From Nitrospirota bacterium (GTDB taxonomy: Bacteria > Nitrospirota > UBA9217), in assembly GCA_963751455.1 (NCBI GenBank), contig CAVVUN010000009.1, positions 64,001 through 128,000 of the forward strand: a stretch of 64,000 bases of DNA, read 5' to 3'. Below the pieces are notes generated by a model, which was not told the origin of the DNA, made no database searches, and saw nothing but the letters and a program-made list of their open reading frames with translations. Of the stretch, positions 40,699 to 55,252 are shown piece by piece (position 1 is the stretch's first letter; every line of letters starts with the position of its first letter). The position numbers and the translations under genes are program-made.

Positions 40699-41778
40699 AT
40701 GGAGGATGACACTCTTTACAAAAGTCTTAAGAAAAGGGGTGTATCGAGAAGGGAATTTATACAATTCTGTGCATCGATGGCCGCTACTCTGGCGCTGCCT
40801 CCTACTTTTGTAGCGACAATAGCAGAGGCCCTTGAGAAAGCCAAGAAGCCTACGGTAGTATGGCTCGAATTTCAAGACTGCTGCGGCGATACTGAATCCA
40901 TGCTGAGAGCATGGAAGCCGAGCATCGGGCAGCTGGTGCTCGATATCATATCCCTCGATTATCATGAGACCATCATGGCGCCGGCCGGCAAACAGGCCGA
41001 GAAATCGCTCTATGACGTGGTTAAAAATCAGAAAGGAAAATATCTCGTCGTTGTGGAGGGTGCGATACCGCGAAAAGACGGGGGGGTATATTGCACGATC
41101 GGAGGCAGAACCGCAGTACAGATTGCAAAAGAAGTGTGCGGCAATGCAGCCGCTTCCCTGGCTGTCGGGTCGTGCGCAGTATGGGGAGGCATCGCATCAC
41201 CGCGTCCCAACCCGACCGGAGCAGTAGGCCTTGAGGATGTTGTGGGCGGCGCGATCGTAAATCTCCCCGGCTGCCCGATGAATGTCGATAATGTTACTGC
41301 CACGATAGTCCACTACCTTACCTTCGGATCGTGGCCGCAGCTCGACAGCCGAAAGCGACCGCTCTTCGCGCACGGTGTCAGGGTCCATGATAAATGCGAA
41401 CGCAGGGCCAATTTCGACGCAGGCCAGTTTGTGAGGCAATGGGGTGATGAAGGCCACCGGAAGGGCTGGTGTCTTTATGAAATGGGCTGCAAAGGTCCTG
41501 AGGCATATTTCAACTGCCCAAGCGTCCGGTGGAACGAACATACCAGCTGGCCTGTTAAAGGCGGTCATGGCTGCATAGCATGCGCAGCGGATCATAACTG
41601 GGATAAAATGTCGCCAATGTATGCGAGGCTGCCCGGTGTTCCGGGATTCGGAATCAATAGTACTGCGGACAAAGTCGGGGCCGGCATAGCAGTAGCTACA
41701 GCTGCCGGGTTAATAGCCCATGGCATCGGAAGGGCTGCAGCGAAAAAGAAAGAACGGGATGAAGGAACGCCGGAGTAG
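40699..41778 (+). CDS. [NiFe]-hydrogenase small subunit 1
   Basis: Tat motif SRREF, FeS Cys motifs, C-terminal TM anchor; proximal motif QDCCGD. Confidence 0.95.
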   Translation: MEDDTLYKSLKKRGVSRREFIQFCASMAATLALPPTFVATIAEALEKAKKPTVVWLEFQDCCGDTESMLRAWKPSIGQLVLDIISLDYHETIMAPAGKQAEKSLYDVVKNQKGKYLVVVEGAIPRKDGGVYCTIGGRTAVQIAKEVCGNAAASLAVGSCAVWGGIASPRPNPTGAVGLEDVVGGAIVNLPGCPMNVDNVTATIVHYLTFGSWPQLDSRKRPLFAHGVRVHDKCERRANFDAGQFVRQWGDEGHRKGWCLYEMGCKGPEAYFNCPSVRWNEHTSWPVKGGHGCIACAADHNWDKMSPMYARLPGVPGFGINSTADKVGAGIAVATAAGLIAHGIGRAAAKKKERDEGTPE

Positions 41779-41866: not shown

Positions 41867-43574
41867 ATGGCAAAGATCGCGATAGATCCGATCACCAGGA
41901 TAGAAGGACACTTGAGGATCGAGGCGCAGGTCGAGGGCGGCAAAGTCGTGGATGCATGGTCGTCGAGCACCATGTTCCGGGGGCTCGAGATCATTGTGAA
42001 GGGGCGCGATCCCCGGGAGGCTTGGCTCTTCGTCCAACGCATCTGAGGGGTCTGAACCACGGTTCACGCCACCGCCTCGGTGAGAGCGGTTGAAAACGCA
42101 TTAAAGATCCAGATACCGGATAACGCGAGAATCATTCGAAACCTGATCACGGGCATTCAGTACGTGCAGGACCATGTTGTGCATTTCTACCATCTGCATG
42201 CGCTCGACTGGGTGGACATCGTAAACTCGCTTAAAGCAGACCCAACGAAAACATCTTCTCTGGCCCAGTCGCTCTCCGATTGGCCGAATTCCTCGGCGAC
42301 CTATTTCAAGGGCGTGCAGCAGAAGGTCAAGGGGCTTGCCGAAAGCGGGCAGCTGGGACTCTTTGCTAACGCCTACTGGGGCCACCCGGCCTACAAACTG
42401 CCGGCGGAAGCAAATCTTATGGCGGTTGCGCATTATCTCGAAGCTCTCGAATGGCAGCGCGATGTCATCAGAATGCAGGCGCTGCTTGGGGCGAAGAATC
42501 CCCATGCCCAGACGTATCTGGTGGGCGGGGTATCCATTCCTGTTGACCCAAGCAGCCAGGAGGCCCTGAACGCGGGAAGCATCGCGTTCATGAACGATAT
42601 ATCGCAGAAGGCTCTCGATTTCGTTCAGAGGGTTTACATCCCTGACCTACTCGCGGTAGCGTCCTTCTATAAGGACTGGGCCTCCTACGGCGGCGGCGTT
42701 GGAAATTATCTCTCGTTCGGCGAGTTCCCTAACGACGGGGAAAGCAACACCGCGAATCTGTGGCTGCCGAGGGGCATTATCAAAGGGAAAAACCTGGCGA
42801 AAGTCGAGCCTGTGGACCAGGCGAAGATCATGGAATACATCACTCATTCCTGGTATGAGTATAAGGAAGGCGACGCCAAATCGAAGCACCCCTGGGACGG
42901 GGAGACTGATTTCAAATATTCCGGACCGAAACCGCCGTATGAATTTTTAAATACGGACAAGAAATACAGCTGGGTGAAGGCACCGCGTTATGAAGAGGCA
43001 CCAATGGAAGTCGGTCCTCTTTCGAGAATGCTGGTAGCGTACGCATCCGGTCATAAGCAGGTTAAGGATGCAGTTGATATGGTCCTGAAGAAACTCGGTG
43101 TCGGTGCCGGAGCGCTCTTCTCCACGCTCGGCAGAGTAGCGGCACGTGGCGTGGAGACGCTGCTTACCGCTCAGATGCTCCCTGTCTGGATAGCACAGCT
43201 TGGCGAGAATATGAAAAAGGGAGAACTGCGGATCCACAACGGAGATAAATGGGACCCCTCGTCTTGGCCGAATGAGGCCAGAGGGTTCGGGTTCCATGAA
43301 GCACCCCGCGGCGCGCTCGGTCACTGGATCGTCATCAAGGACAAGGCGATCGCAAATTACCAGGCGGTCGTACCGAGCACGTGGAACGGATCTCCGCGCG
43401 ACGCAAAAGGCCAGGGGCCCCTGGGAGCAGGCGCTCATCGGCACCCCGGTAGCCGACCCGAACAAACCGGTCGAAATCCTGCGCACGATACATTCGTTCG
43501 ACCCGTGCATGGCGTGCGCGGTCCACGTCGTGGATATGGAAGGAAAGGAAGTGACGAGGGTAAAAGTGGCATGA
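41867..43574 (+). CDS. [NiFe]-hydrogenase large subunit 1; two in-frame TGA (codons 60, 63) in the L1 motif; frameshift near 43414
   Basis: MAKIAIDPITRIEGHL...QRI*GV*TTVH, continuous with ORF 42080+; C-terminal DPCMACAVH in shifted frame; AAGGAGG RBS. Confidence 0.88.
42063..42094 (+). promoter_or_regulatory. Putative bacterial SECIS hairpin
   Basis: TTCA-CGC-CACC[GCCTC]GGTG-AGA-GCG-GT-TGAA; loop begins with G, 18 nt after the second TGA. Confidence 0.5.
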
Positions 43575-43642
43575 CGGGAAAAAATGCCGACACGAAGCTC
43601 TCTCTTGTCGTGACTTAGAGTCTATTTTAACATGTTCTTTTT

Positions 43643-43714
43643 CGTCATGCCGGACTTGATCCGGCATCCAGAAAGTTATGAAAAGACCGGATTCCAGCTT
43701 TCGCTGGAATGACG
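43643..43714. repeat. REP-like double hairpin, same family as the intron target in pbpC
   Basis: CGTCATGCCGGACTTGATCCGGCATCCAG...GGATTCCAGCTTTCGCTGGAATGACG. Confidence 0.85.
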
Positions 43715-43779: not shown

Positions 43780-44445
43780 ATGCCTCAAAATACGAGAATA
43801 CGGGTGTACGCATGGGAATTTCCGGTCCGGTTCACGCACTGGATGAATGCGCTCTGCCTCGTGGCCCTCAGTATCACCGGGTATTACATCGCGTATCCGT
43901 TCATCCATGCTGTGTCGACCAGTCAGAACATCATGGGGTGGATGCGGTTTATTCACTTCGTGTCAGCGTACGTTCTCCTGATGATGATCATCATCAGGAT
44001 CTACTGGATGTTTGCGGGCAACCGCTATGCGAGCTGGAGGGTTTTTATCCCGCTTACAGGGCGTCAGTGGGAGGACATGTGGGCGGGGCTGAAGTTTTAT
44101 CTGTTCATGACGAGAAAGCCTCCCTACGCAGTCGGGCATTCTGCAATGGCGTCGATTACGTATCTGGCAGTCTTCCTCCTGTTCCTCTTCGAAATCGCGT
44201 CCGGCTTTGCGCTTTACTCACAGGGCAACAGGGGGTTCTTTAACGCTGTCCTGGGCGGCTGGCTTCTGGCGTTCATGAACGTGCAGACGATACGGTTGTG
44301 GCACCATCTCGTTATGTATTTTCTTCTGGTCTTCACAATCATCCACGTGTATATCGGCTGGTATCTCGACAGCGCCGAGAAGAACGGGGTCATGGGATCC
44401 ATATTCGGAGGCTATAAGTTCGTCACCGGAAAAGAGTGGGAATAG
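43780..44445 (+). CDS. Ni/Fe-hydrogenase b-type cytochrome subunit 1
   Basis: WEFPVRFTHW, RFIHF, RLWHH, IHVY. Confidence 0.94.
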   Translation: MPQNTRIRVYAWEFPVRFTHWMNALCLVALSITGYYIAYPFIHAVSTSQNIMGWMRFIHFVSAYVLLMMIIIRIYWMFAGNRYASWRVFIPLTGRQWEDMWAGLKFYLFMTRKPPYAVGHSAMASITYLAVFLLFLFEIASGFALYSQGNRGFFNAVLGGWLLAFMNVQTIRLWHHLVMYFLLVFTIIHVYIGWYLDSAEKNGVMGSIFGGYKFVTGKEWE

Positions 44446-44516: not shown

Positions 44517-45068
44517 ATGAAAAAGAATCAAACAAAAAAATCTCAATATGTGACCGTCCTCGGACTCGGCAATATTCTCCTTTCCGATGAAGGCGTGGGT
44601 GTGCATGCCGCATGCATGCTGAGGAAAAAATATTCTTTTACTCCCAAGGTCGAGATCATTGACGGCGGCACAATGGGTCTCGACCTTCTACCGCTTTTTC
44701 AGGACCGAGATCGCATACTGATCATGGATGCAGTAGACTTCGGAAAGCCGCCGGGCCACATCGCAATGGTCGAGGGAGATGCTATCCCATCAGTACTCAA
44801 ATCAAAACTATCCGTCCATCATATCGGCCTCTCCGATCTGCTTCTAGCAGCAAAACTGACGCGTCATACCTCTCTTGAAATTTGTCTCGTGGGCATCCAG
44901 CCGCAATCCTTGGATATCGGTCTCGAATTAACGGAAGGGATCCGCACCGGGATGGACGTTTTAATCAAGAAGGCAGTTCAGAAGTTGACAGAATGGAATA
45001 TCAGCTGTAACGCTCGATCGGCACCTCACGAAGAAAATATCTCCAACCTTCTTCAATTGTCTTTATAA
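44517..45068 (+). CDS. Hydrogenase maturation protease 1
   Basis: LGLGNILLSDEGVGV, DGGTMG, DAV, SVHHIG. Confidence 0.94.
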   Translation: MKKNQTKKSQYVTVLGLGNILLSDEGVGVHAACMLRKKYSFTPKVEIIDGGTMGLDLLPLFQDRDRILIMDAVDFGKPPGHIAMVEGDAIPSVLKSKLSVHHIGLSDLLLAAKLTRHTSLEICLVGIQPQSLDIGLELTEGIRTGMDVLIKKAVQKLTEWNISCNARSAPHEENISNLLQLSL

Positions 45069-45378: not shown

Positions 45379-46494
45379 ATGCTTATGGGTAAGAAAGACG
45401 AAGTAAGCAGCCAGTTTCTCGATGCGCTCGAGTTCCGGGGCATCAAACGAAGAGATTTTTTAAAGTTTTGTACTGCAACCGCCGCCCTTCTCGGACTTTC
45501 TGAATTCCAGGCCCCTCAAATAGCCGCAGCCCTGGAAAAGGCTGCCAAGAGACAACCTGTTGTCTGGCTTAATTTCGCATCCGATTCAGGATGCACCGAA
45601 GCATTCATCAAGGCAACCTACCCGAATCCAGCCCAAGTCATCCTCGATATCCTGAGCGTTGATTACAACGAAACCATTATGGCCGCGGCCGGCAAACAGG
45701 CGGAAGAAATACTTGCCTCATCAGCGAAGGCCGGCGGCTATATCCTGATCGTAGAAGGTGGCATCCCGACCAAAAAAGGGCACGGCATGATCGGGAACAA
45801 GGAAATGCTCGATGTGCTGAAGGAAATGGCAGCGCCCGCTGTTGCCGTGATCGCAATCGGCAGCTGCGCAACCGATGGAGGCGTGCCGGCCGCGAAGCCG
45901 AATCCCTCGCAGATCATTGGCACCGGCGAGGCGCTCAAGAAGGTCAATATCAGCAAGCCGCTCATCAATCTTGATCTCTGCCCCGTGAATCCGGAATACC
46001 TTGTCGGTGTGGTGGTCAATTATTTGCTTCTCGGGAAGATCCCGGATCTCGATGGCTTCGGAAGGCCGAAGATGTTCTATGGACAGACGATACACGACAA
46101 CTGTGAACGGCGGGCGCACTTCGACGGAGGCAGATTTGTCGATAAATTCGGCACTCAGGAAGAGGCTTTGGGTTATTGCCTGTACAAAATGGGCTGCAAG
46201 GGGCCGATGACCTATTCCGCATGTCCAAAGATCCAATACAATGACCGGACGAGCTGGTGCATCAAGGCCGGCGGGCCGTGCATCGGCTGCGCTGAGCGGG
46301 GATGGACGGACAAGTTTGCAGGGTTCTATGAACCCCTGCCCGGAGTGAAAATACCGGGTCTGGGCGGCGTGGAGGCAGGTGCCGATAAGATAGGGGCAGT
46401 TGCCGCAGCGGCCACGGCCGTCGGCATCGCGATTCATGCAGCAGCAACGGGAACTTCCGGAAGGACCAAAGAAAAAGACGGAGGTAAAAAATAA
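45379..46494 (+). CDS. [NiFe]-hydrogenase small subunit 2
   Basis: Tat KRRDF, proximal motif SDSGCTE, HDNCERR, CLYKMGCKG, CIGC. Confidence 0.95.
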   Translation: MLMGKKDEVSSQFLDALEFRGIKRRDFLKFCTATAALLGLSEFQAPQIAAALEKAAKRQPVVWLNFASDSGCTEAFIKATYPNPAQVILDILSVDYNETIMAAAGKQAEEILASSAKAGGYILIVEGGIPTKKGHGMIGNKEMLDVLKEMAAPAVAVIAIGSCATDGGVPAAKPNPSQIIGTGEALKKVNISKPLINLDLCPVNPEYLVGVVVNYLLLGKIPDLDGFGRPKMFYGQTIHDNCERRAHFDGGRFVDKFGTQEEALGYCLYKMGCKGPMTYSACPKIQYNDRTSWCIKAGGPCIGCAERGWTDKFAGFYEPLPGVKIPGLGGVEAGADKIGAVAAAATAVGIAIHAAATGTSGRTKEKDGGKK

Positions 46495-48086
46495 TGGCCA
46501 GGATAACCATAGACCCGATGACAAGGATCGAAGGACATCTGAGGATCGATGTCGAGATCGAAGGCGGCAAGGTAAAGGACGCATGGACAACCGGTACGCT
46601 GTTCCGGGGCTTCGAGATCATCCTGCAGGGAAGAGACCCGAGGGATGCCTGGCATATAACGCAGCGGATCTGCGGAGTCTGCCCGACGTCGCACGGCCAT
46701 ACCTCCTCCATGAGCATGGATGATGCCTTCAAGGTTAAACCGCCGGACAACGGCCGCATCATAAGAAATATCGTAGAAGGCGCACAGTTCGTACATTCCC
46801 ATATCCTCTGGTTCTATCACCTGAACGCTCTGGACTATGTCGATGTTGTCTCGGCCTTGAAGGCCCAGCCCAAAGAGGCCTCCCTCAAGAAAGTGCAGAA
46901 CAAACTCAAGTCCTTTGTCGAGTCCGGGCAGCTCGGCCCGTTCGCAAACGCATACTGGGGGCACCCTGCATACAAACTGCCGCCTGAGCTCAATCTCCTT
47001 GCTGTCGCCCATTATCTTGAAGCGCTGGAAATGCAGGCAAAGGCCGCCCAGGTGAGCGCGCTCTTCGGCGGAAGGATGCCGATGACGATGACGAGCCCAC
47101 CCGGAGGCGTAACCCATGTGCCTACAGTGGACGATCTCAAAAACTATCTCTTCAGGGTCAAGGAACTGCAGGACTGGATCGACAATGTTTACATCCCGGA
47201 TGTGCTCGCGATTGCGCCCTTCTACCTGAGCTACGCAGGCGTGGGAAAGGGCCACGGCAACTTCCTGTCCTGGGGTGTTTTTGAAGACGCTTCGTTCGAT
47301 CCCAAGAAACGGCTCCTGCCGAGGGGAGCCATATTCGCCGCTGATTTCCCCAAGGTGCATGATGCGAAGCCTGAGGACGTGACAGAGCATACATCCCACA
47401 GCTGGTACAAGGGTGGGAAACCGCTGAATCCGGCCGTGGGCGAGACGGACCCGGATTACACCGGGTACGATTCGAACAAGAAGTATACCTGGGCCAAGGC
47501 GCCCCGGTTCCAGAACAAGCCCATGGAAGTGGGCGCCCTTGCCAGGATGCTCGTGGCATATGCCACAGGACAGCCCACTGCCAAGAAGATGATCGACGAC
47601 ACGCTCGCGAAGATAGGGCATGCCGGGCAGCCGCAGGTGCTTCTGGGTGTGGTCGGCAGAATCGCAGCGCGCGCGCTGGAATGCAAAATGATCGCGGATG
47701 CGATGTACCAATGGGGCATCGACCTTGTAACGAACATAAAGAACGGGAATACAGCGGTCTATAACGATTACAAGATACCCGACAAGGCGCAGGGAATCGG
47801 TCTCTGGGAGGCGCCTCGCGGAGCGCTTGGCCATTGGATCGACGTCGAAGGCAAGAAGATCAAGAACTACCAGTGCGTAGTTCCGACCACGTGGAATGTC
47901 TGCCCCCGAGACGATAACGGGGTGCGCGGACCGATCGAGCAGGCGTTGGTTGGAACTGCCGTTGCCGACGCCAACAAGCCTCTTGAAGTGATGCGGGTAG
48001 TCCATTCCTTCGACCCGTGCCTTGCCTGTACGGTACATGTGATCCATCCCGAGTCGAACCGGATTATGGACTTCAAGGTCTCATGA
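46494..48086 (+). CDS. [NiFe]-hydrogenase large subunit 2
   Basis: RICGVC and DPCLAC (all Cys) plus cleavable C-terminal tail. Confidence 0.97.
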   Translation: MARITIDPMTRIEGHLRIDVEIEGGKVKDAWTTGTLFRGFEIILQGRDPRDAWHITQRICGVCPTSHGHTSSMSMDDAFKVKPPDNGRIIRNIVEGAQFVHSHILWFYHLNALDYVDVVSALKAQPKEASLKKVQNKLKSFVESGQLGPFANAYWGHPAYKLPPELNLLAVAHYLEALEMQAKAAQVSALFGGRMPMTMTSPPGGVTHVPTVDDLKNYLFRVKELQDWIDNVYIPDVLAIAPFYLSYAGVGKGHGNFLSWGVFEDASFDPKKRLLPRGAIFAADFPKVHDAKPEDVTEHTSHSWYKGGKPLNPAVGETDPDYTGYDSNKKYTWAKAPRFQNKPMEVGALARMLVAYATGQPTAKKMIDDTLAKIGHAGQPQVLLGVVGRIAARALECKMIADAMYQWGIDLVTNIKNGNTAVYNDYKIPDKAQGIGLWEAPRGALGHWIDVEGKKIKNYQCVVPTTWNVCPRDDNGVRGPIEQALVGTAVADANKPLEVMRVVHSFDPCLACTVHVIHPESNRIMDFKVS

Positions 48087-48099
48087 GAAGGAGGATGCC

Positions 48100-48738
48100 A
48101 TGACAAACCAAATGACAAAAGAGTGGAGCCTTGGCTACATCCTCGATCACTGGCTCAGGGTGGCAGCCATAGCTGTGCTTATTTTTACCGGCCTTTATAT
48201 TCACTGGCCGTTCATTCCGGGCGGGCCAGAAAGCTTCATCATGGCCTCGATGCGGTTCTTCCACTTTGTGGCGGCGTATGCGCTGATCCTGGGGCTCGTT
48301 CTGCGGGTATATATGGCGTTCCGGTCCACGTTCGATCCCGACTGGAAGGACTTTTGCGTAAGCGAAAACCTGAAAAACCTTCCGGACATCATGGGCTACT
48401 ATCTTTTTATAAAGAAGTCGCATAAAGACTACCGGAAGTACAACCCGCTCCAGGCACTATCGTATCTGTTTGTAGCCCTGGTTATCATATTCACGGCCTT
48501 TACCGGGGCGGCTATCTACCACGGAAGGCTGTTTATGGTATTTCCCCAAGACAGTTTCCGGTGGGTGAACTCGATGTTTGGCGGGGAGCCTTATACCAGG
48601 ATATGGCACATTCTGTCCATGTGGTTTTTTATCATCTTCATGCTGATCCATGTCTACATGGCGTTGATGATATCCTGGGTGAATAAAGACAGGACCTTTT
48701 CATCGATTTTCACCGGTTACAAACTGAAAAAAGATTAA
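48100..48738 (+). CDS. Ni/Fe-hydrogenase b-type cytochrome subunit 2
   Basis: DHW, RFFHF, KYNPLQ, RIWH, IHVY. Confidence 0.93.
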   Translation: MTNQMTKEWSLGYILDHWLRVAAIAVLIFTGLYIHWPFIPGGPESFIMASMRFFHFVAAYALILGLVLRVYMAFRSTFDPDWKDFCVSENLKNLPDIMGYYLFIKKSHKDYRKYNPLQALSYLFVALVIIFTAFTGAAIYHGRLFMVFPQDSFRWVNSMFGGEPYTRIWHILSMWFFIIFMLIHVYMALMISWVNKDRTFSSIFTGYKLKKD

Positions 48739-48740
48739 TT

Positions 48741-49247
48741 ATGATATTGAATGAAGAGTTGCGGGGAGGCGTCTCAGCGCTTCCCCGCAAAGTTTTGATA
48801 CTCGGTGTAGGCAACCTGCTCCTCACGGACGACGGCTTCGGCGTCCATCTGATCAATTCCCTCAAAGAAACGATTTTCCCGGAAAATGTATCCCTGCTCG
48901 AAGCAGGGACGGTCAGCCATCAGTTGGTCCCGCTGCTGCACGAGATGGACCACCTGATCGTTATAGATGCGGTTCAGGCCGGCGATGCGCCTGGTGCGCT
49001 GTTCCGTTTTTCGCCGGAGGATATCCGTTATCAGTCCGAGCAAATGGTCTCCTTGCACCAGATAAGCCTGATTGACGTTTTGCGGATGGCTGAACTTACG
49101 GGTCGAAAGCCGAAGACCGTCATTATCGGTGTCCAGCCGAAAGACGTTTCCTCGTGGTCGCTCGAGTTGACAGACGAACTCAGGGCGGTAATGCCCCGGG
49201 TCAGGGAACTGGTATTTGAAGAACTGAGGAAAATTGAGATCCTGTGA
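48741..49247 (+). CDS. Hydrogenase maturation protease 2
   Basis: LGVGNLLLTDDGFGV, DAV, SLHQ. Confidence 0.93.
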   Translation: MILNEELRGGVSALPRKVLILGVGNLLLTDDGFGVHLINSLKETIFPENVSLLEAGTVSHQLVPLLHEMDHLIVIDAVQAGDAPGALFRFSPEDIRYQSEQMVSLHQISLIDVLRMAELTGRKPKTVIIGVQPKDVSSWSLELTDELRAVMPRVRELVFEELRKIEIL

Positions 49248-49364: not shown

Positions 49365-49904
49365 ATGTGTCTTGCAATTCCCTCTAGAATTATCAGCATA
49401 AACAATTTATTTGCCACCGTTGACGTTTTCGGCGCCAGGAAAGAAGTGAGCCTCATGCTCATGCCCGAGGAGATCACGATCGGGGACTACGTCCTGGTCC
49501 ATGCCGGTTTTGCAATCCAAAAAGTCGATAAAGAGATCGTCGAAACGGGAAAATCCATGCACGAAACCGCTCTTGCACTCAGTATTCTGGATATCATAGT
49601 GGAAAAATGCAGTGAAGCAGGCGGCCGAACAGTCGATTCCGTAAGGGTCAGGATCGGGAAGGCCGCCGGCGTGCTGCCTGAGGCGCTTCAATTCGCGTTC
49701 GAGGCGGCAAAGACTACCACCGTTGCGGAAAAGGCCGAGTTGATCATAGAGAGTGTACCCGTGGGAGGGTCGTGCAATGATTGTAAAAAAGATTTTTCCG
49801 TTGACGACGTTCCTTATGTATTCGCCTGCCCGCTCTGCGGCTCCAAAGCGTTCGAGATCAAGACAGGACGCGAGATGGAAATCGTTGACATGGAGGTAAA
49901 TTAG
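49365..49904 (+). CDS. hypC-hypA: HypC-HypA fusion
   Basis: MCLAIP...GDYVLVHAGFAI then in frame MHE...CxxC...CPxC...GREM. Confidence 0.9.
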   Translation: MCLAIPSRIISINNLFATVDVFGARKEVSLMLMPEEITIGDYVLVHAGFAIQKVDKEIVETGKSMHETALALSILDIIVEKCSEAGGRTVDSVRVRIGKAAGVLPEALQFAFEAAKTTTVAEKAELIIESVPVGGSCNDCKKDFSVDDVPYVFACPLCGSKAFEIKTGREMEIVDMEVN

Positions 49905-50052
49905 CCCCGAAAATTTCACCGCGAAGACGCTAAGGACGCGAGGAAGTCTCTAAGGGCGGAAAGTATTATCTGCCGTAAAGATAGGTGTCCATGGTTTCCT
50001 CGCGCTCTTCGCGCCCTCGCGGTTAGTCCCGTTTTGCTCTTTGGAGGTTTTT

Positions 50053-50697
50053 TTGAAAGTTAAAGTTGTAACCCGCATACTCGAAGCGAATGACCGTATC
50101 GCAGATGAGAACCGGAAGCGGTTCAAGGAAGCCGGGGTCTACGTCGTGAATCTTATGGGCGCACCGGGAGCGGGCAAGACCACGCTGCTCGAACGGACGA
50201 TCCGGGAGCTGAAGCCACACACGAGGATCGGCGTAATAGAAGGGGACATTGTCGGGACCGACGACGCTGAACGGATCGGCGCTCTCGATGTTCCCGTGGT
50301 CCAGATCAATACCGGCGGCGCCTGTCATCTCGACGCGAATATGATCAGCGAAGTCCTCAAAGAACTGCCGCTCAAGGAACTCGATATGCTGATCATCGAG
50401 AACGTGGGGAACCTGGTTTGTCCCGCGGAGTTCAAGGTGGGAGAGGATATGAAGATGATGGTCCTTTCCCTGGCTGAAGGACATGACAAGCCGCTAAAAT
50501 ATCCTCTCATGTTTCGCGAGTCATCAGCCCTGGTCCTCAATAAGATAGACCTTCTCCCGTACATGAACACGGACATCGGGAAGGTCAGAAAAGACTCGCT
50601 CGCTCTCAATCCGCAATTAAAAATATTCGAAGTATCCTGTGCCAACGGAGCGGGGATCGATGCGTGGGCCACATGGTTGAGCGGGCTCAAGTCATAG
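50053..50697 (+). CDS. hypB: Hydrogenase nickel incorporation GTPase
   Basis: GAPGAGKTT, GGACHLDA, ENVGNLVCPA, KPLKYP; TTG start after GGAGG. Confidence 0.96.
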   Translation: MKVKVVTRILEANDRIADENRKRFKEAGVYVVNLMGAPGAGKTTLLERTIRELKPHTRIGVIEGDIVGTDDAERIGALDVPVVQINTGGACHLDANMISEVLKELPLKELDMLIIENVGNLVCPAEFKVGEDMKMMVLSLAEGHDKPLKYPLMFRESSALVLNKIDLLPYMNTDIGKVRKDSLALNPQLKIFEVSCANGAGIDAWATWLSGLKS

Positions 50698-53060
50698 TAA
50701 AAGGCATCGTCCAGGGAGTAGGCTTCCGGCCCTTTGTCTTCAATCTGGCGGAATCCCTCGGGCTCAAAGGCTACGTGACGAATACGGGCGCCGGGGTGCT
50801 TATCGAGGTCGAGGGCGAATATCTTCGCTTATTTTTGGAACGCTTGAGCCGTGAGGCGCCTCCGCTTTCCCGGGTTACGGATATTTCAGTTACCCGTCTT
50901 CCCTGTTACGGTTATTCCGATTTTTCGATTCAGGCCAGTATTGATTGCGCTGAAGGCCATCCGTTTACACTCGTCTCTCCCGATGTTTCCGTATGTGATG
51001 ATTGCGTGCGGGAATTCACAGATCCGGCAGACCGGAGATATCTCTATCCCTTCATCAACTGCACGAACTGCGGACCCCGGTTTTCGATTACAAACGCGGT
51101 GCCGTACGATAGGCCGAATACGACAATGGCTTCTTTCGGCATGTGTCCGGATTGCCTTCGTGAATACCATGATCCTCGGGACCGCAGGTTTCACGCCCAG
51201 CCGAATGCCTGCCCGAAATGCGGACCAACAGTCGAATTCAGAGTCCGGGGTGCTGAGCGCCGAGTGAAGGGGACAGATGCAATCAGAGAGACAATAACAC
51301 TGCTGAAACAAGGCGGCATTGTGGCCGTCAAAGGCATTGGTGGTTTTCATATCGCATGCGATGCAGTGAACAACGATGCTGTAAGGATGCTTCGCGAAAG
51401 AAAAAGAAAAAGCAATAAGCCGTTTGCGGTTATGGCGCCTACGGCAGCGGCAGCACAATCTTTCTGCTCGATATCGAAGGAGGAGGAGATGCTTCTTCAA
51501 TCGAACAGGCGGCCGATCGTCCTTCTCAAAAAGCAGGGTGGCGGGTTGTCTGATGACGTAGCACCAAACAATCAGTACGTCGGCGTTATGCTTCCTTATA
51601 CGCCTCTGCATTATCTTCTTTTTCATCATTCTCTCGTTAGGGGGCAACGCGTCGTGGACTCGCATTTCACGGCACTGGTAATGACCAGCGGAAACCTTTC
51701 CGAAGAGCCGATCATCCGGGACAATGACGATGCTCTGAAGAAGCTGGCACATATTGCTGATGGTTTTCTTCTGCATAATCGTGATATCTTTATGCGGGTC
51801 GACGACACGGTCATCCGATTGCGGAGTGAAAATACAGCAGTTTTGTCATCTCAATCCAAAATTTGTTTCATCCGCCGCTCTCGCGGCTATGCCCCCGATC
51901 CGATCGCTCTTCATGACGACGGACCCGAGGTCCTGGGGTGCGGGGCCGACCTTAAGAATACATTCACATTGACCAAAGGAAAATTTGCCATTCCGAGTCA
52001 GCATATCGGCGACATGGAAAATTATGAGACCGTCAGGTTCTACGAAGAGAGCCTTGAGAACCTGAAGGCAGTTTACCGGGCTGATCCGAAGGTGATTATC
52101 CACGATCTGCATCCGGAATACCTGTCCACTAAATGGGCGATAGAATGCGGAGTCAGGAGTGCCGAGTTCGGAGTGAAAACGTATGGTATCCAGCATCACT
52201 ATGCGCACATCGGTTCGGTCATGGCGGAACATGGCCTTAAAGACAAGGTTATCGGGGTCGCTTTGGATGGGACAGGCTATGGTACGGATGGCAATCTCTG
52301 GGGTGGAGAATTTCTTATCGCTGGTATAGACGGGTTTGAGAGGGCAGGACAATTCCAGTATGTGCCTCTTCCTGGCGGTGAAGCAGCAATCAGAGATCCC
52401 TGGAGGACTGCGGTAAGCTATATAGCGGAATCTGAAGGAGCGGGATTATGGGAAAGTTTGGAAATTGCAGGCTTTAAAAGAAAATACGGGAAAGACCTTC
52501 TGGAGAAGGTCATAAAGATTGCCGCATCGAGGGAACTGTCTCCTCTTGCCTCAGGAGCCGGCAGGCTGTTCGATGCTGTTTCAGCGCTCCTCGGTATCTG
52601 CGATAGAAATACATTTGAAGGCGAGGCTGCAATGGCATTGGAATCCTTTACTTGCGACGGCATTGAGGACGAGTATCCGTTTGAGTTGCGAGAAAAAAAA
52701 GAATATACTGTCGTACAATTCAGCACAACATTCAAGGCGATCCTGTCCGATATGGCGGAAACAGTAAGTACTGAAAAGATGTCGACCCGCTTTCATAATA
52801 CTGTGATATCGGCCATACGCAGGACTGTAGGAAAGATAACAGAACAGTCCGGGATTACTGACGTCGCGCTGAGCGGCGGAACGTTCCAGAACAGGTATAT
52901 TTTGAATAAAACGCTGACGGCGCTTTCGTCAGACGGTATGCAGGTTTACACCAACCTGAATGTTCCCTGCAATGACGGAGGCATTTCACTCGGTCAGGCA
53001 TACCTGGTCAGGGAGAGGCTTAAGGAGTGCGGAATTCGAAGTGCGGAGAGCGGAGTTTAG
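50673..53060 (+). CDS. hypF: Carbamoyltransferase HypF
   Basis: GIVQGVGFRPFV, zinc fingers, HDLHP, QHHYAH, NDGGISLGQ. Confidence 0.97.
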   Translation: MVERAQVIVKGIVQGVGFRPFVFNLAESLGLKGYVTNTGAGVLIEVEGEYLRLFLERLSREAPPLSRVTDISVTRLPCYGYSDFSIQASIDCAEGHPFTLVSPDVSVCDDCVREFTDPADRRYLYPFINCTNCGPRFSITNAVPYDRPNTTMASFGMCPDCLREYHDPRDRRFHAQPNACPKCGPTVEFRVRGAERRVKGTDAIRETITLLKQGGIVAVKGIGGFHIACDAVNNDAVRMLRERKRKSNKPFAVMAPTAAAAQSFCSISKEEEMLLQSNRRPIVLLKKQGGGLSDDVAPNNQYVGVMLPYTPLHYLLFHHSLVRGQRVVDSHFTALVMTSGNLSEEPIIRDNDDALKKLAHIADGFLLHNRDIFMRVDDTVIRLRSENTAVLSSQSKICFIRRSRGYAPDPIALHDDGPEVLGCGADLKNTFTLTKGKFAIPSQHIGDMENYETVRFYEESLENLKAVYRADPKVIIHDLHPEYLSTKWAIECGVRSAEFGVKTYGIQHHYAHIGSVMAEHGLKDKVIGVALDGTGYGTDGNLWGGEFLIAGIDGFERAGQFQYVPLPGGEAAIRDPWRTAVSYIAESEGAGLWESLEIAGFKRKYGKDLLEKVIKIAASRELSPLASGAGRLFDAVSALLGICDRNTFEGEAAMALESFTCDGIEDEYPFELREKKEYTVVQFSTTFKAILSDMAETVSTEKMSTRFHNTVISAIRRTVGKITEQSGITDVALSGGTFQNRYILNKTLTALSSDGMQVYTNLNVPCNDGGISLGQAYLVRERLKECGIRSAESGV

Positions 53061-53061
53061 C

Positions 53062-54120
53062 ATGAAACAAATGCTTCAGGAAATGCATACACTGGCCGAG
53101 GGCATCGGCAGGCCGATTAAACTGATGGAGGTCTGCGGAACCCATACGGTCGAAATATTCAGGCATGGGGTGAGGGACGTTATTCCTAAAAGCATCACGC
53201 TTCTCAGCGGTCCTGGATGCCCGGTTTGCGTTACTTCGGTTCGCGATGTTGATGCCGCAATTGCTATTGCAAGCGTCCCGGGCGTCATTTTAACGACGTT
53301 CGGGGACATGATGCGCGTGCCCGGTGGAAAGCAGTCAATGCTCGAAGCCCGTTCGGAAGGCGCGGACATCCGTGTCCTCTATTCGCCGATCGACGCCCTT
53401 TCGCTTGCGCAAAAAGAAAAAAGCCGCGAAGTGGTTTTTTTCGCGACCGGCTTCGAGACAACATCTCCGCTCATCGCGGGGACAATCGCCCATGCCGAAC
53501 AGGCAATGGTTCGAAACTTCTCAATATATACTGCGCACAAACTGGTACCTCCTGCGTTAAAGGCATTGCTGGATTCGCCCGATGTGAAGGTCGACGGTTT
53601 TATCCTTCCCGGCCATGTAAGCACGATTATCGGGAAAAAACCGTACGAATTCGCGGCATCTCAGTATCATATACCTTCAGTGATTACCGGTTTCGAGGCA
53701 GGGGAGATCATAGAAGGAATCCTGATGATTCTCAGGCAGATCGCGCAAAGGCGCGCCGCTGTCGAGATCCAGTATGTAAAAGCGGTAAAGGCAGAGGGGA
53801 ACCCGCGGGCTGTAGAATTGCTGGAAAAATATTTCGAACCGGATGATGCATACTGGCGAGGCATTGGGGTAATTCCGAACAGCGGATTAAAACTGAGGGA
53901 GGCGTATTCCTCATTCGATGCGAACAGGAAATTCAAGCCTCCTGCATCTGACGCTGTCGAACCGGAGCTTTGCTCCTGCGGTGATATCCTGCGGGGCGTG
54001 AAGATACCGACCGAATGTGCCTTATTCGGGACAGGCTGTACCCCCGAGTCTCCGATCGGTCCCTGCATGGTAAGCACAGAAGGAAGCTGCGCCGCATACT
54101 ATAAATACGGACAAAGATAA
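53062..54120 (+). CDS. hypD: Hydrogenase maturation factor HypD
   Basis: MEVCGTHT, GPGCPVC, GFETT, PGHVS, CMVSTEGSC. Confidence 0.97.
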   Translation: MKQMLQEMHTLAEGIGRPIKLMEVCGTHTVEIFRHGVRDVIPKSITLLSGPGCPVCVTSVRDVDAAIAIASVPGVILTTFGDMMRVPGGKQSMLEARSEGADIRVLYSPIDALSLAQKEKSREVVFFATGFETTSPLIAGTIAHAEQAMVRNFSIYTAHKLVPPALKALLDSPDVKVDGFILPGHVSTIIGKKPYEFAASQYHIPSVITGFEAGEIIEGILMILRQIAQRRAAVEIQYVKAVKAEGNPRAVELLEKYFEPDDAYWRGIGVIPNSGLKLREAYSSFDANRKFKPPASDAVEPELCSCGDILRGVKIPTECALFGTGCTPESPIGPCMVSTEGSCAAYYKYGQR

Positions 54121-54262
54121 AATTCCAATCACAAATCCCAAATAACAACCAAACTTCAAGATCCAACGTTTGAAACGTTTGAAATTTCATAATTGAAATT
54201 TGGAGCTTATTTGTGATTTATTGCTTGTAATTTGGATCTTTATATTTCACTTCGAGGTGTTC

Positions 54263-55252
54263 ATGGACAGAATACTCCTGGGTCACGGCAGCGGTGGAAA
54301 GCTCATGCACGAGCTCATTACCCGTCATTTCAGTCCTGCCTTCGGCATCAAGGGGTCCGGTGACTCGGCTGTCTTAGACGTCCCCCCGGGACGGCTTGCT
54401 TATACAACGGATTCCTACGTGGTTACCCCGCTTTTTTTCCCGGGAGGTAATATCGGCGACCTTGCGGTGAACGGCACCGTGAACGACCTCGCAGTTTCCG
54501 GAGCTGAACCGCTCTACCTGACAGCGGGCTTCGTCATCGAAGAAGGTTTTCTCCTGTCAGACCTCAAGACCATTGTTGCCTCCATGGCGTCTGCTGCTTC
54601 AAAGGCCGGTGTCAAGATCGTTGCCGGCGATACCAAGGTTGTGAATAAGGGCAAGGCTGACGGCATATTCATCAATACATCAGGCATTGGCGTTCTTCCC
54701 GACGGCAGGGAGAGTTCCGCCGCGCGGATCAGGAAAGGGGACAAGATCATCATCAGCGGGGAAATAGGCTGCCATGGCGTTGCGGTCATAGCAGAGAGAA
54801 ACGGACTCACCTTCGATCCGGCGATTATGACCGACACCCGCGCCCTCAATGAAGTGGTCCGGAGCATGTATTCAGTGTCGCAGGAAATCCACTTCATGCG
54901 GGACCCTACGCGCGGAGGCCTTGCCACGACCCTGAAGGAAGCAGCTCTCGAATCCGGACTGTGCATGCGAATCCGGGAGAACGCTTTGCCGGTGCCTCCA
55001 GGCGTCAAGGGCGCCTGCAGCCTTCTCGGACTCGATCCGCTGTTTGTTGCGAATGAAGGCATCCTGATCGCCCTTGTTGGTCCAGACGTCGCAGAATCCG
55101 TCCTTTCTGCGATGAAAAGGCATGACCGTCAAGCTGCAATTATCGGAGAGGCAGCTGAAACGCCTTCGGGAATGGTCCTGCTCGAAACGGCGATCGGAGG
55201 CAGCCGTATGATTGACATGCTCCAAGGGGAACAGTTGCCGCGAATATGTTAA
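54263..55252 (+). CDS. hypE: Carbamoyl dehydratase HypE
   Basis: HGSGG, GTVNDL, RDPTRGG, C-terminal PRIC. Confidence 0.97.
   Translation: MDRILLGHGSGGKLMHELITRHFSPAFGIKGSGDSAVLDVPPGRLAYTTDSYVVTPLFFPGGNIGDLAVNGTVNDLAVSGAEPLYLTAGFVIEEGFLLSDLKTIVASMASAASKAGVKIVAGDTKVVNKGKADGIFINTSGIGVLPDGRESSAARIRKGDKIIISGEIGCHGVAVIAERNGLTFDPAIMTDTRALNEVVRSMYSVSQEIHFMRDPTRGGLATTLKEAALESGLCMRIRENALPVPPGVKGACSLLGLDPLFVANEGILIALVGPDVAESVLSAMKRHDRQAAIIGEAAETPSGMVLLETAIGGSRMIDMLQGEQLPRIC

Follow-up and report, generated by a model that had tools for sequence, protein, structure and literature searches.

Two in-frame TGA codons at the N-terminal nickel-ligand positions of a group 1 hydrogenase family in Nitrospirota: candidate sites of double selenocysteine insertion

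Hydrogenases with selenocysteine (Sec) in the N-terminal motif have been described in silico by Takano et al. (2026, PMC13582414), who reported group 4 [NiFeSe] hydrogenases with CXXU, UXXC and UXXU; their 16 UXXU sequences belong to H2-evolving complexes of groups 4b, 4e and 4g, groups 1-3 being excluded there. The same paper discusses the terminal and bridging ligand roles of the two L1 positions, reports that tRNA-ReC is enriched in group 4 UXXU genomes (56% vs 2.3%), and raises the caveat of cysteine insertion. It also cites Baltazar et al. (2011) for an N-terminal CXXU in two group 1 sequences and one group 3 sequence. As far as that citation goes, Sec is predicted at the bridging position of the group 1 cases, the same type as the 57 CxxU genes described below, and the locus presented here adds a second, terminal UGA and an RNA signature specific for UxxU. 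The classical group 1a [NiFeSe] hydrogenases (Desulfomicrobium baculatum, 1CC1, and Desulfovibrio vulgaris HysAB) likewise belong to group 1 and have Sec as a nickel ligand, as is proposed here; according to the available part of PMC8020662 they use soluble cytochrome c3, whereas our operon encodes a cytochrome b.

The engineered E. coli Hyd-1 variants C76U and C79U are active, at 3% and 13% of the native enzyme respectively, with a lower KM for H2, slower turnover and less O2 tolerance, and no double C76U/C79U variant was seen in the part of the source available to us (PMC8020662). The order of these activities parallels the common CxxU and rare UxxC among natural sequences without explaining a benefit, and since the engineered variants are slower and less O2-tolerant, the advantage of Sec at these sites is unexplained. 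On the decoding side, the accessible portions of two studies describe SelC* tRNAs as cysteine isoacceptors with U73 and a GCA or UCA anticodon, Nitrospirae included (Mukai et al. 2017, PMC5389517), one of which inserts Cys at a Sec UGA through SelB (PMC11415595).

Since UXXU is in print for group 4 and CXXU for two group 1 sequences, the motif analysed here is less unprecedented than the initial annotation of this DNA implied when it proposed a different type of selenium hydrogenase. What stands of that proposal is that no report of UxxU in group 1 was found in literature outside subscription journals, where supplements (PMC8020662 Fig. S1, bioRxiv) may list such sequences. The gene likely encodes a group 1 uptake hydrogenase with two selenium ligands, an arrangement published only for another group.

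The hydrogenase locus and its operon

The window, a stretch of 64,000 nucleotides from a Nitrospirota genome (GCA_963751455.1, contig CAVVUN010000009.1, positions 64,001 to 128,000), carries on its forward strand, as it does all the genes and hairpins given below, the group 1 large-subunit gene at 41867..43574, with an N-terminal RI-UGA-GV-UGA, a C-terminal DPCMACAVH and a tail of the cleavable type, in two frames in the assembly. Re-reading of the sequence agreed with the initial annotation that the frame from the ATG at 41867 runs FVQRI-TGA-GV-TGA-TTVHA with both TGAs on the cysteines of RxCGxC, that the paralogue at 46494 reads RICGVC, and that the C-terminal motif keeps its Cys. In the alignment with 3MYR, TGA 1 (42044..42046) occupies the terminal nickel-ligand position, equivalent to Cys76 of E. 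coli Hyd-1, and TGA 2 (42053..42055) the Ni-Fe bridging position, equivalent to Cys79; in-frame UGA thus aligns with Cys of the homologues. The best solved relatives are 3MYR, which we take to be the Allochromatium vinosum hydrogenase (657 bits), and E. coli Hyd-1 (527 bits), as compared with 268-278 bits for the [NiFeSe] enzymes. They share RIEGH, the Asp of ALDW and APRG with the window enzyme, and the operon order is Hya-like, whereas their ligands are all Cys. The nearest named relatives of the large subunit are Nitrospirota MAGs with 77-83% identity.

The small-subunit gene (40699..41778; TIGR00391, 429.6 bits, cut-off 179.5) encodes a twin-arginine-type leader with SRREF and a C-terminal hydrophobic tail. 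Downstream of the large subunit are the genes for a HyaC-type cytochrome b subunit (43780..44445; TIGR02125, 159.3 bits, cut-off 121.5) and a HyaD/HybD-type maturation protease (44517..45068; TIGR00072, 136 bits, above its cut-off; TIGR00140, 151 bits). A second, all-Cys hydrogenase operon of the same layout (small subunit, large subunit with RICGVC, cytochrome b, protease) follows at 45379..49247, and then the maturation genes fused hypC-hypA, hypB, hypF, hypD and hypE at 49365..55252. The hypC-hypA fusion is one 179-aa ORF (49365-49904), and a similar 180-aa ORF is present in locus L292. Between the large-subunit and cytochrome b genes, a palindromic, repeat-like element at 43635-43710 (gtcatgccggacttgatccggcatcc...attccagctttcgctggaatgac) resembles a small insertion of mobile or REP-like type.

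With this operon, an L1 motif RxCGxC carrying TGA, an L2 motif DPCxxCxxH behind the frameshift, and group 1 enzymes as nearest relatives, the window enzyme is, as judged from its sequence, a group 1 membrane-bound [NiFe]-hydrogenase; 3MYR, the structure closest to it, points to no single subgroup among 1b-1f. The operon content suggests that it couples H2 oxidation to quinone reduction. It differs from the group 4 complexes of Takano et al. in its small/large/cytochrome b organization; an antiporter or Ech-type cluster is absent and NuoD-like models reach only 20-33 bits. It also differs from the classical group 1a [NiFeSe] enzymes, as the C-terminal DPC has Cys in the window and in 61 of the 61 UxxU sequences having a C-terminus, and the model NF045518 scores 350.6 on the 511-aa part against a cut-off of 780.

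The proximal-cluster motif of the small subunit is QDCCGDT, with an extra Cys and with Asp at the site where the fourth cluster ligand is usually Cys. As a rule, members of this hydrogenase family have Asn or Asp there, and we rejected it as a partner of Sec: 47/50 CxxC loci share it, which makes it a family trait. A search for residues co-varying with Sec in the homologues found only clade markers.

Conservation and evolution of the two TGA codons

Our survey of the phylum covered 401 genomes, 181 of which had a match; counts were taken from the 150 matches listed, 49 weaker ones being left out. Among the matches listed, at least 52 genomes of the 401 carry two TGAs and at least 41 carry one. 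All TGA-bearing genes among these matches, some TGA-free ones and 80 further loci made up a set of 197, which after subtraction of 2 duplicates and 3 unparsed loci gave 192 distinct sequences: 62 UxxU, 57 CxxU, 73 CxxC and no UxxC, class counts that are not frequencies because TGA-bearing genes were fetched preferentially. The proposed check for conserved TGAs therefore came out positive, with the pair of TGAs conserved codon for codon in 62 distinct sequences, and the earlier judgement that two chance nonsense mutations are unlikely holds. Because of this conservation in homologues, both TGAs are genuine and not errors, as far as comparison can tell.

The UxxU motif occurs also in records titled Deltaproteobacteria and Anaerolineae, and a pattern scan of Chloroflexota gave one match in 401 genomes (a pattern match only). 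Scanning metagenomes for the UxxC pattern turned up three matches, one of them a hydrogenase (L295, Ga0315312_1000312), and this one real case rules out that UxxC never occurs. It is the only group 1 UxxC large subunit found, and it keeps the ATA codon, the ACG-GTT pair and the SECIS-type hairpin, which are described below. Databases store the UxxU family as 59-residue stubs plus headless C-terminal pieces.

In a tree built with FastTree from 191 rows, without 4 that were short or broken and with 3 added paralogues, UxxU dominates a clade of 87 sequences (support 99) with CxxU and CxxC groups nested inside, and about 8 changes are needed. In this clade the third position of codon 1 switches between purine and pyrimidine 4 times, as against 14-21 times at five neighbouring fourfold sites and 3-10 times at six more within predicted RNA elements. 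For a subclade of 41 sequences, all UxxU, chosen after the tree had been seen, the figures are 0 at codon 1 and 10 at the next Gly. Changing this rarely (4 vs 14-21), the first TGA is maintained by selection, which is hard to reconcile with a neutral Cys at that codon. The bridging Sec (CxxU) is likely the older of the two, the terminal Sec having been added later, and both have probably reverted several times. Five genomes (G322, G238, G184, G356 and G410) encode the large subunit twice, once with TGA and once as a close all-Cys relative, which suggests selenium-dependent isoenzyme pairs.

RNA signals and decoding machinery

A SECIS-type stem-loop is predicted at 42071..42090 (loop GGT or GGTGA, -10.0 kcal/mol); its apical loop starts with G at 42079, which puts it 32 nt downstream of TGA 1 and 23 nt downstream of TGA 2. 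[quoted passage not shown] In one group 4b example, as far as the accessible text goes, the loop is 25 and 16 nt from the UGAs (PMC13582414), in comparison with 32 and 23 here. The initial annotation had drawn the hairpin at 42063-42094 and placed it 18 and 27 nt after the TGAs. Its G-led loop stands and the stable part is only 42071-42090; pairing of 42063 with 42094 was discarded, as the required base is found in 2/62 UxxU genes, and position 42063 follows the TGAs by 7 and 16 nt, in contradiction to the annotation's own coordinates. That the spacing falls in the bacterial SECIS range was correctly seen and applies, measured to the loop, to both UGAs.

Taken by itself, the stem-loop at 42071-42090 folds no better than chance (z -1.6, with an equally good fold in 13 of 200 shuffles), hence its support is comparative. 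The SECIS-type fold is present in 62/62 UxxU, 45/57 CxxU and 19/73 CxxC genes, where synonymously recoded controls pass at 0.43, 0.32 and 0.22, respectively, and one stem position has compensatory pairs (AU 22, UA 5, GC 2), so that the suggested examination for covarying hairpins gave a positive answer. The loop G doubles as position 1 of a Val codon. Of the 12 CxxU genes that fail, most form a hairpin in a shifted register whose loop is GCTT or GTTT; in one CxxU clade (L250, L252, L254, L258, L261-L268) the shifted loop is mostly a GCTT tetraloop, about 18 nt past the UGA. The selD gene of the genome (G000 C2:129950-130880) has an in-frame TGA followed by two successive hairpins, as well as a frameshift near 130520, and its SECIS loop G is at +33/+34 from the selD UGA, the same as from UGA 1 of the hydrogenase. 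This agreement and the retention of the hairpin in L295, where UGA 1 is its sole target, fit one SECIS reaching UGA 1; the idea of one SECIS for two UGAs, put forward at the outset, is thus in accord with both the spacing and the genome's own selD.

A second hairpin is predicted upstream at 42049..42070, with the core TGAAC-CACG-GTTCA (42053-42066), in which TGA 2 itself is base-paired. The Thr-Val following UGA 2 is encoded by ACG-GTT in 53/62 UxxU genes, as compared with 4/57 CxxU and 2/73 CxxC genes and with 2/13 of the CxxU genes nested within the UxxU clade, the background use in the same genes being 20% and 27%. With these codons a hairpin TGAAC-NACG-GTTCA is completed, which includes UGA 2 and starts 7 nt past UGA 1; its mean pairing probability is 0.78 in UxxU, 0.16 in CxxU and 0.28 in CxxC. 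An extended lower SECIS stem was rejected as the cause of the ACG/GTT conservation (pairing probability 0.01-0.05), the upstream hairpin being preferred. The codon ATA precedes UGA 1 in 52/62 UxxU genes (background 36%), and the window gene has ATC instead. The upstream hairpin offers no covariation, since the protein dictates the bases that pair in it; we infer its structure and role from UxxU relatives that are not independent of each other.

The check for Sec machinery found selA, selB, selC (tRNA-Sec) and selD in the genome, with selD split by an assembly frameshift. Recoding of UGA, as proposed in the initial annotation, is supported by this full set, by the conservation across many genomes and by the class-linked SECIS-type hairpin. 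The presence of selA does not discriminate, being equally common in UxxU (55/57) and CxxC (21/23) genomes. By eye, nine genes of selenoprotein type were recognized in the genome: FdhA, HesB-like, Grx, three DsbA-like, MvhD and two rhodanese-like (G000 C15:13539, C15:1354748, C12:481280, C2:302555, C1:272019, C3:313799, C3:9907, C15:452431 and C6:106516). ARAGORN also returned an odd tRNA-Ser(ACT) at C2:525275-525348 and a weak tRNA-Arg(CCT) at C12:361367-361443, which are probably degenerate or error-bearing copies.

The genome further encodes a tRNA of the SelC*/tRNA-ReC type on the reverse strand of contig C13 (3947-4041; L002:1497-1591), downstream of a YedF-like gene. It is 95 nt long with the anticodon UCA, U73, G1:C72 and an 8-bp acceptor stem (RF01852, 54.2 bits), and is conserved with covarying stems in 9 genomes of its family. 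Length (>=80 nt), anticodon (UCA or GCA), U73 and the tRNA-Sec-like fold place it in this class. As far as the available part of PMC5389517 shows, it resembles SelC* in its tRNA-Sec-like body, U73, UCA and 8/4-type acceptor branch, and differs by G1:C72 from the A1:U72 of the CysRS*-linked type; a search of the genome for selB* and cysS* found none, with one selB and one cysS present, and the tRNA might be charged by SerRS. Across the genomes, SelC* was searched with a pattern and two covariance models (hits >=70 bits, some read base by base; the UCA-type model on 40 genomes). An earlier result of the pattern and RF01852, that G036 and G156 are without SelC*, was overturned by our own covariance models. 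We saw the UCA form in no family but that of the genome itself and the GCA form in most other families, and some variable arms give tRNAs of 115-130 nt that RF01852 misses (G036). SelC* is often within a cluster of a selenium-associated LysR gene (NF040786), selC* and yedF (TIGR03527) (L169:1659-4629; L172; L177; L182-L185), and in L168 and L171 it is immediately downstream of an all-Cys hydrogenase operon.

Competing readings and their significance

We consider it probable that SelB, guided by the single downstream SECIS hairpin, delivers Sec at UGA 1 and then at UGA 2, aided by the upstream hairpin and codon context, and that the resulting enzyme with terminal and bridging selenium oxidizes H2 for the quinone pool. 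One SECIS loop would serve UGA 1, 32 nt off, and then UGA 2, 23 nt off, while the second hairpin beginning 7 nt past UGA 1, together with the usual ATA codon, could help the ribosome past UGA 1. The nickel centre would have two selenium and two sulfur ligands. The Hyp proteins and the protease would mature the large subunit, the enzyme would be exported by Tat, and electrons from H2 would pass via cytochrome b to quinone. The adjacent all-Cys operon may cover selenium shortage, and some Cys at either UGA may come from the SelC*-type tRNA.

That the TGAs are nonsense mutations, base-calling errors or a sign of genome-wide TGA reassignment is barely credible. The assembly does have indel errors, and TC precedes both TGAs in the window, but the same TGAs recur in the 62 sequences from separate assemblies with other base contexts, the 59-residue product that stops at TGA 1 makes up a cluster of 33 members drawn from four sources, and TGA is an ordinary stop in this genome, which ends 459 of 1231 long ORFs with it and has tRNA-Trp(CCA) as well as the two release-factor genes with GGQ. 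A second possibility is that the family is real and the window copy is a pseudogene, the organism depending on the adjacent all-Cys hydrogenase. Contrary to the first description of the large subunit as uninterrupted after the TGAs, its frame is lost at about 43412-43415, ahead of DPCMACAVH, so that the final 54 or so codons, DPCMAC included, are shifted to another frame ending at 43574, and an intact all-Cys operon comes next. The displaced tail reads RGPWEQ...DPCMACAVH...VA*. Yet the site (43410..43418) is two bases short of the homologous GQRGP/GQKGP reading and adjoins a G run; P0002, a relative of 96% identity, continues uninterrupted to DPCMACAVH and agrees with the displaced tail at 52/52 positions; selD and several genes of contig C13 are likewise split in this assembly; and all the other 61 UxxU genes reach the DPC motif. 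In a tblastn screen for frameshifts, 8 of the 89 places tested were flagged, several of them falling in a single gene or being shadows from the opposite strand. As P0002 is intact, the G run adjacent and selD split likewise, the frameshift near 43413 is probably an assembly error, and the pseudogene reading is quite improbable.

The initial annotation's alternative, Cys from a UCA-reading tRNA, is the least improbable of the rivals. Both UGAs would be recoded through SelB and SECIS, and one of them, most likely the first, would receive mainly Cys from a SelC*/tRNA-ReC tRNA, leaving one selenium and making UGA 1 a translational checkpoint. Such a tRNA is indeed present, with UCA, U73 and covarying stems beside the YedF-like gene; the two most contiguous UxxU relatives (G036 and G156) also carry one, and no closed UxxU genome without it was found; and the cited descriptions of SelC* as Cys isoacceptors, of one acting through SelB at a Sec UGA and of tRNA-ReC in group 4 UXXU genomes make Cys at UGA possible. 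On the other hand, SelC*-type tRNAs occur in 23/52 UxxU and 21/41 CxxU genomes, hence they are not enriched with group 1 UxxU, unlike with group 4, and they are found in CxxC genomes too (G081, G093, G308 and G216). A UGA read as Cys alone should drift to TGC or TGT, against the 4 changes observed, the genome has no second selB or cysS of the starred type, and no mechanism is known that would sort two tRNAs between codons 9 nt apart. We regard this reading as unlikely.

Returning to Sec at both UGAs, we tentatively extend it, with rather less confidence, to a widespread Nitrospirota uptake-hydrogenase clade with an Ni(Se)2(S)2 site and a selenium bridge to iron, its UGAs being decoded by a shared SECIS and a hairpin that hides UGA 2 and promotes read-through of UGA 1. 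Such a two-part RNA signal could be likened, as a bacterial counterpart, to the eukaryotic stop-codon redefinition elements. The UxxU-specific signature of the second hairpin, the retention of the first TGA and the tRNA on contig C13 are what our comparison adds to the initial annotation.

If this is true, nature would have, in the H2-oxidizing group, a hydrogenase whose nickel carries two selenium ligands, of which one is bridging; this would test why Sec usually takes only one of the four positions, in view of the lower activity of engineered single swaps at these sites. It is common in Nitrospirota (at least 52 of 401 sampled genomes), and because its genes are stored as stubs and headless pieces, surveys undercount H2 oxidation in this phylum. 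The UxxU/CxxU/CxxC series and the signature tracking UGA 1 would offer a handle on how one SECIS serves two UGAs, and the same series on whether tRNA-ReC supplies cysteine at these codons.
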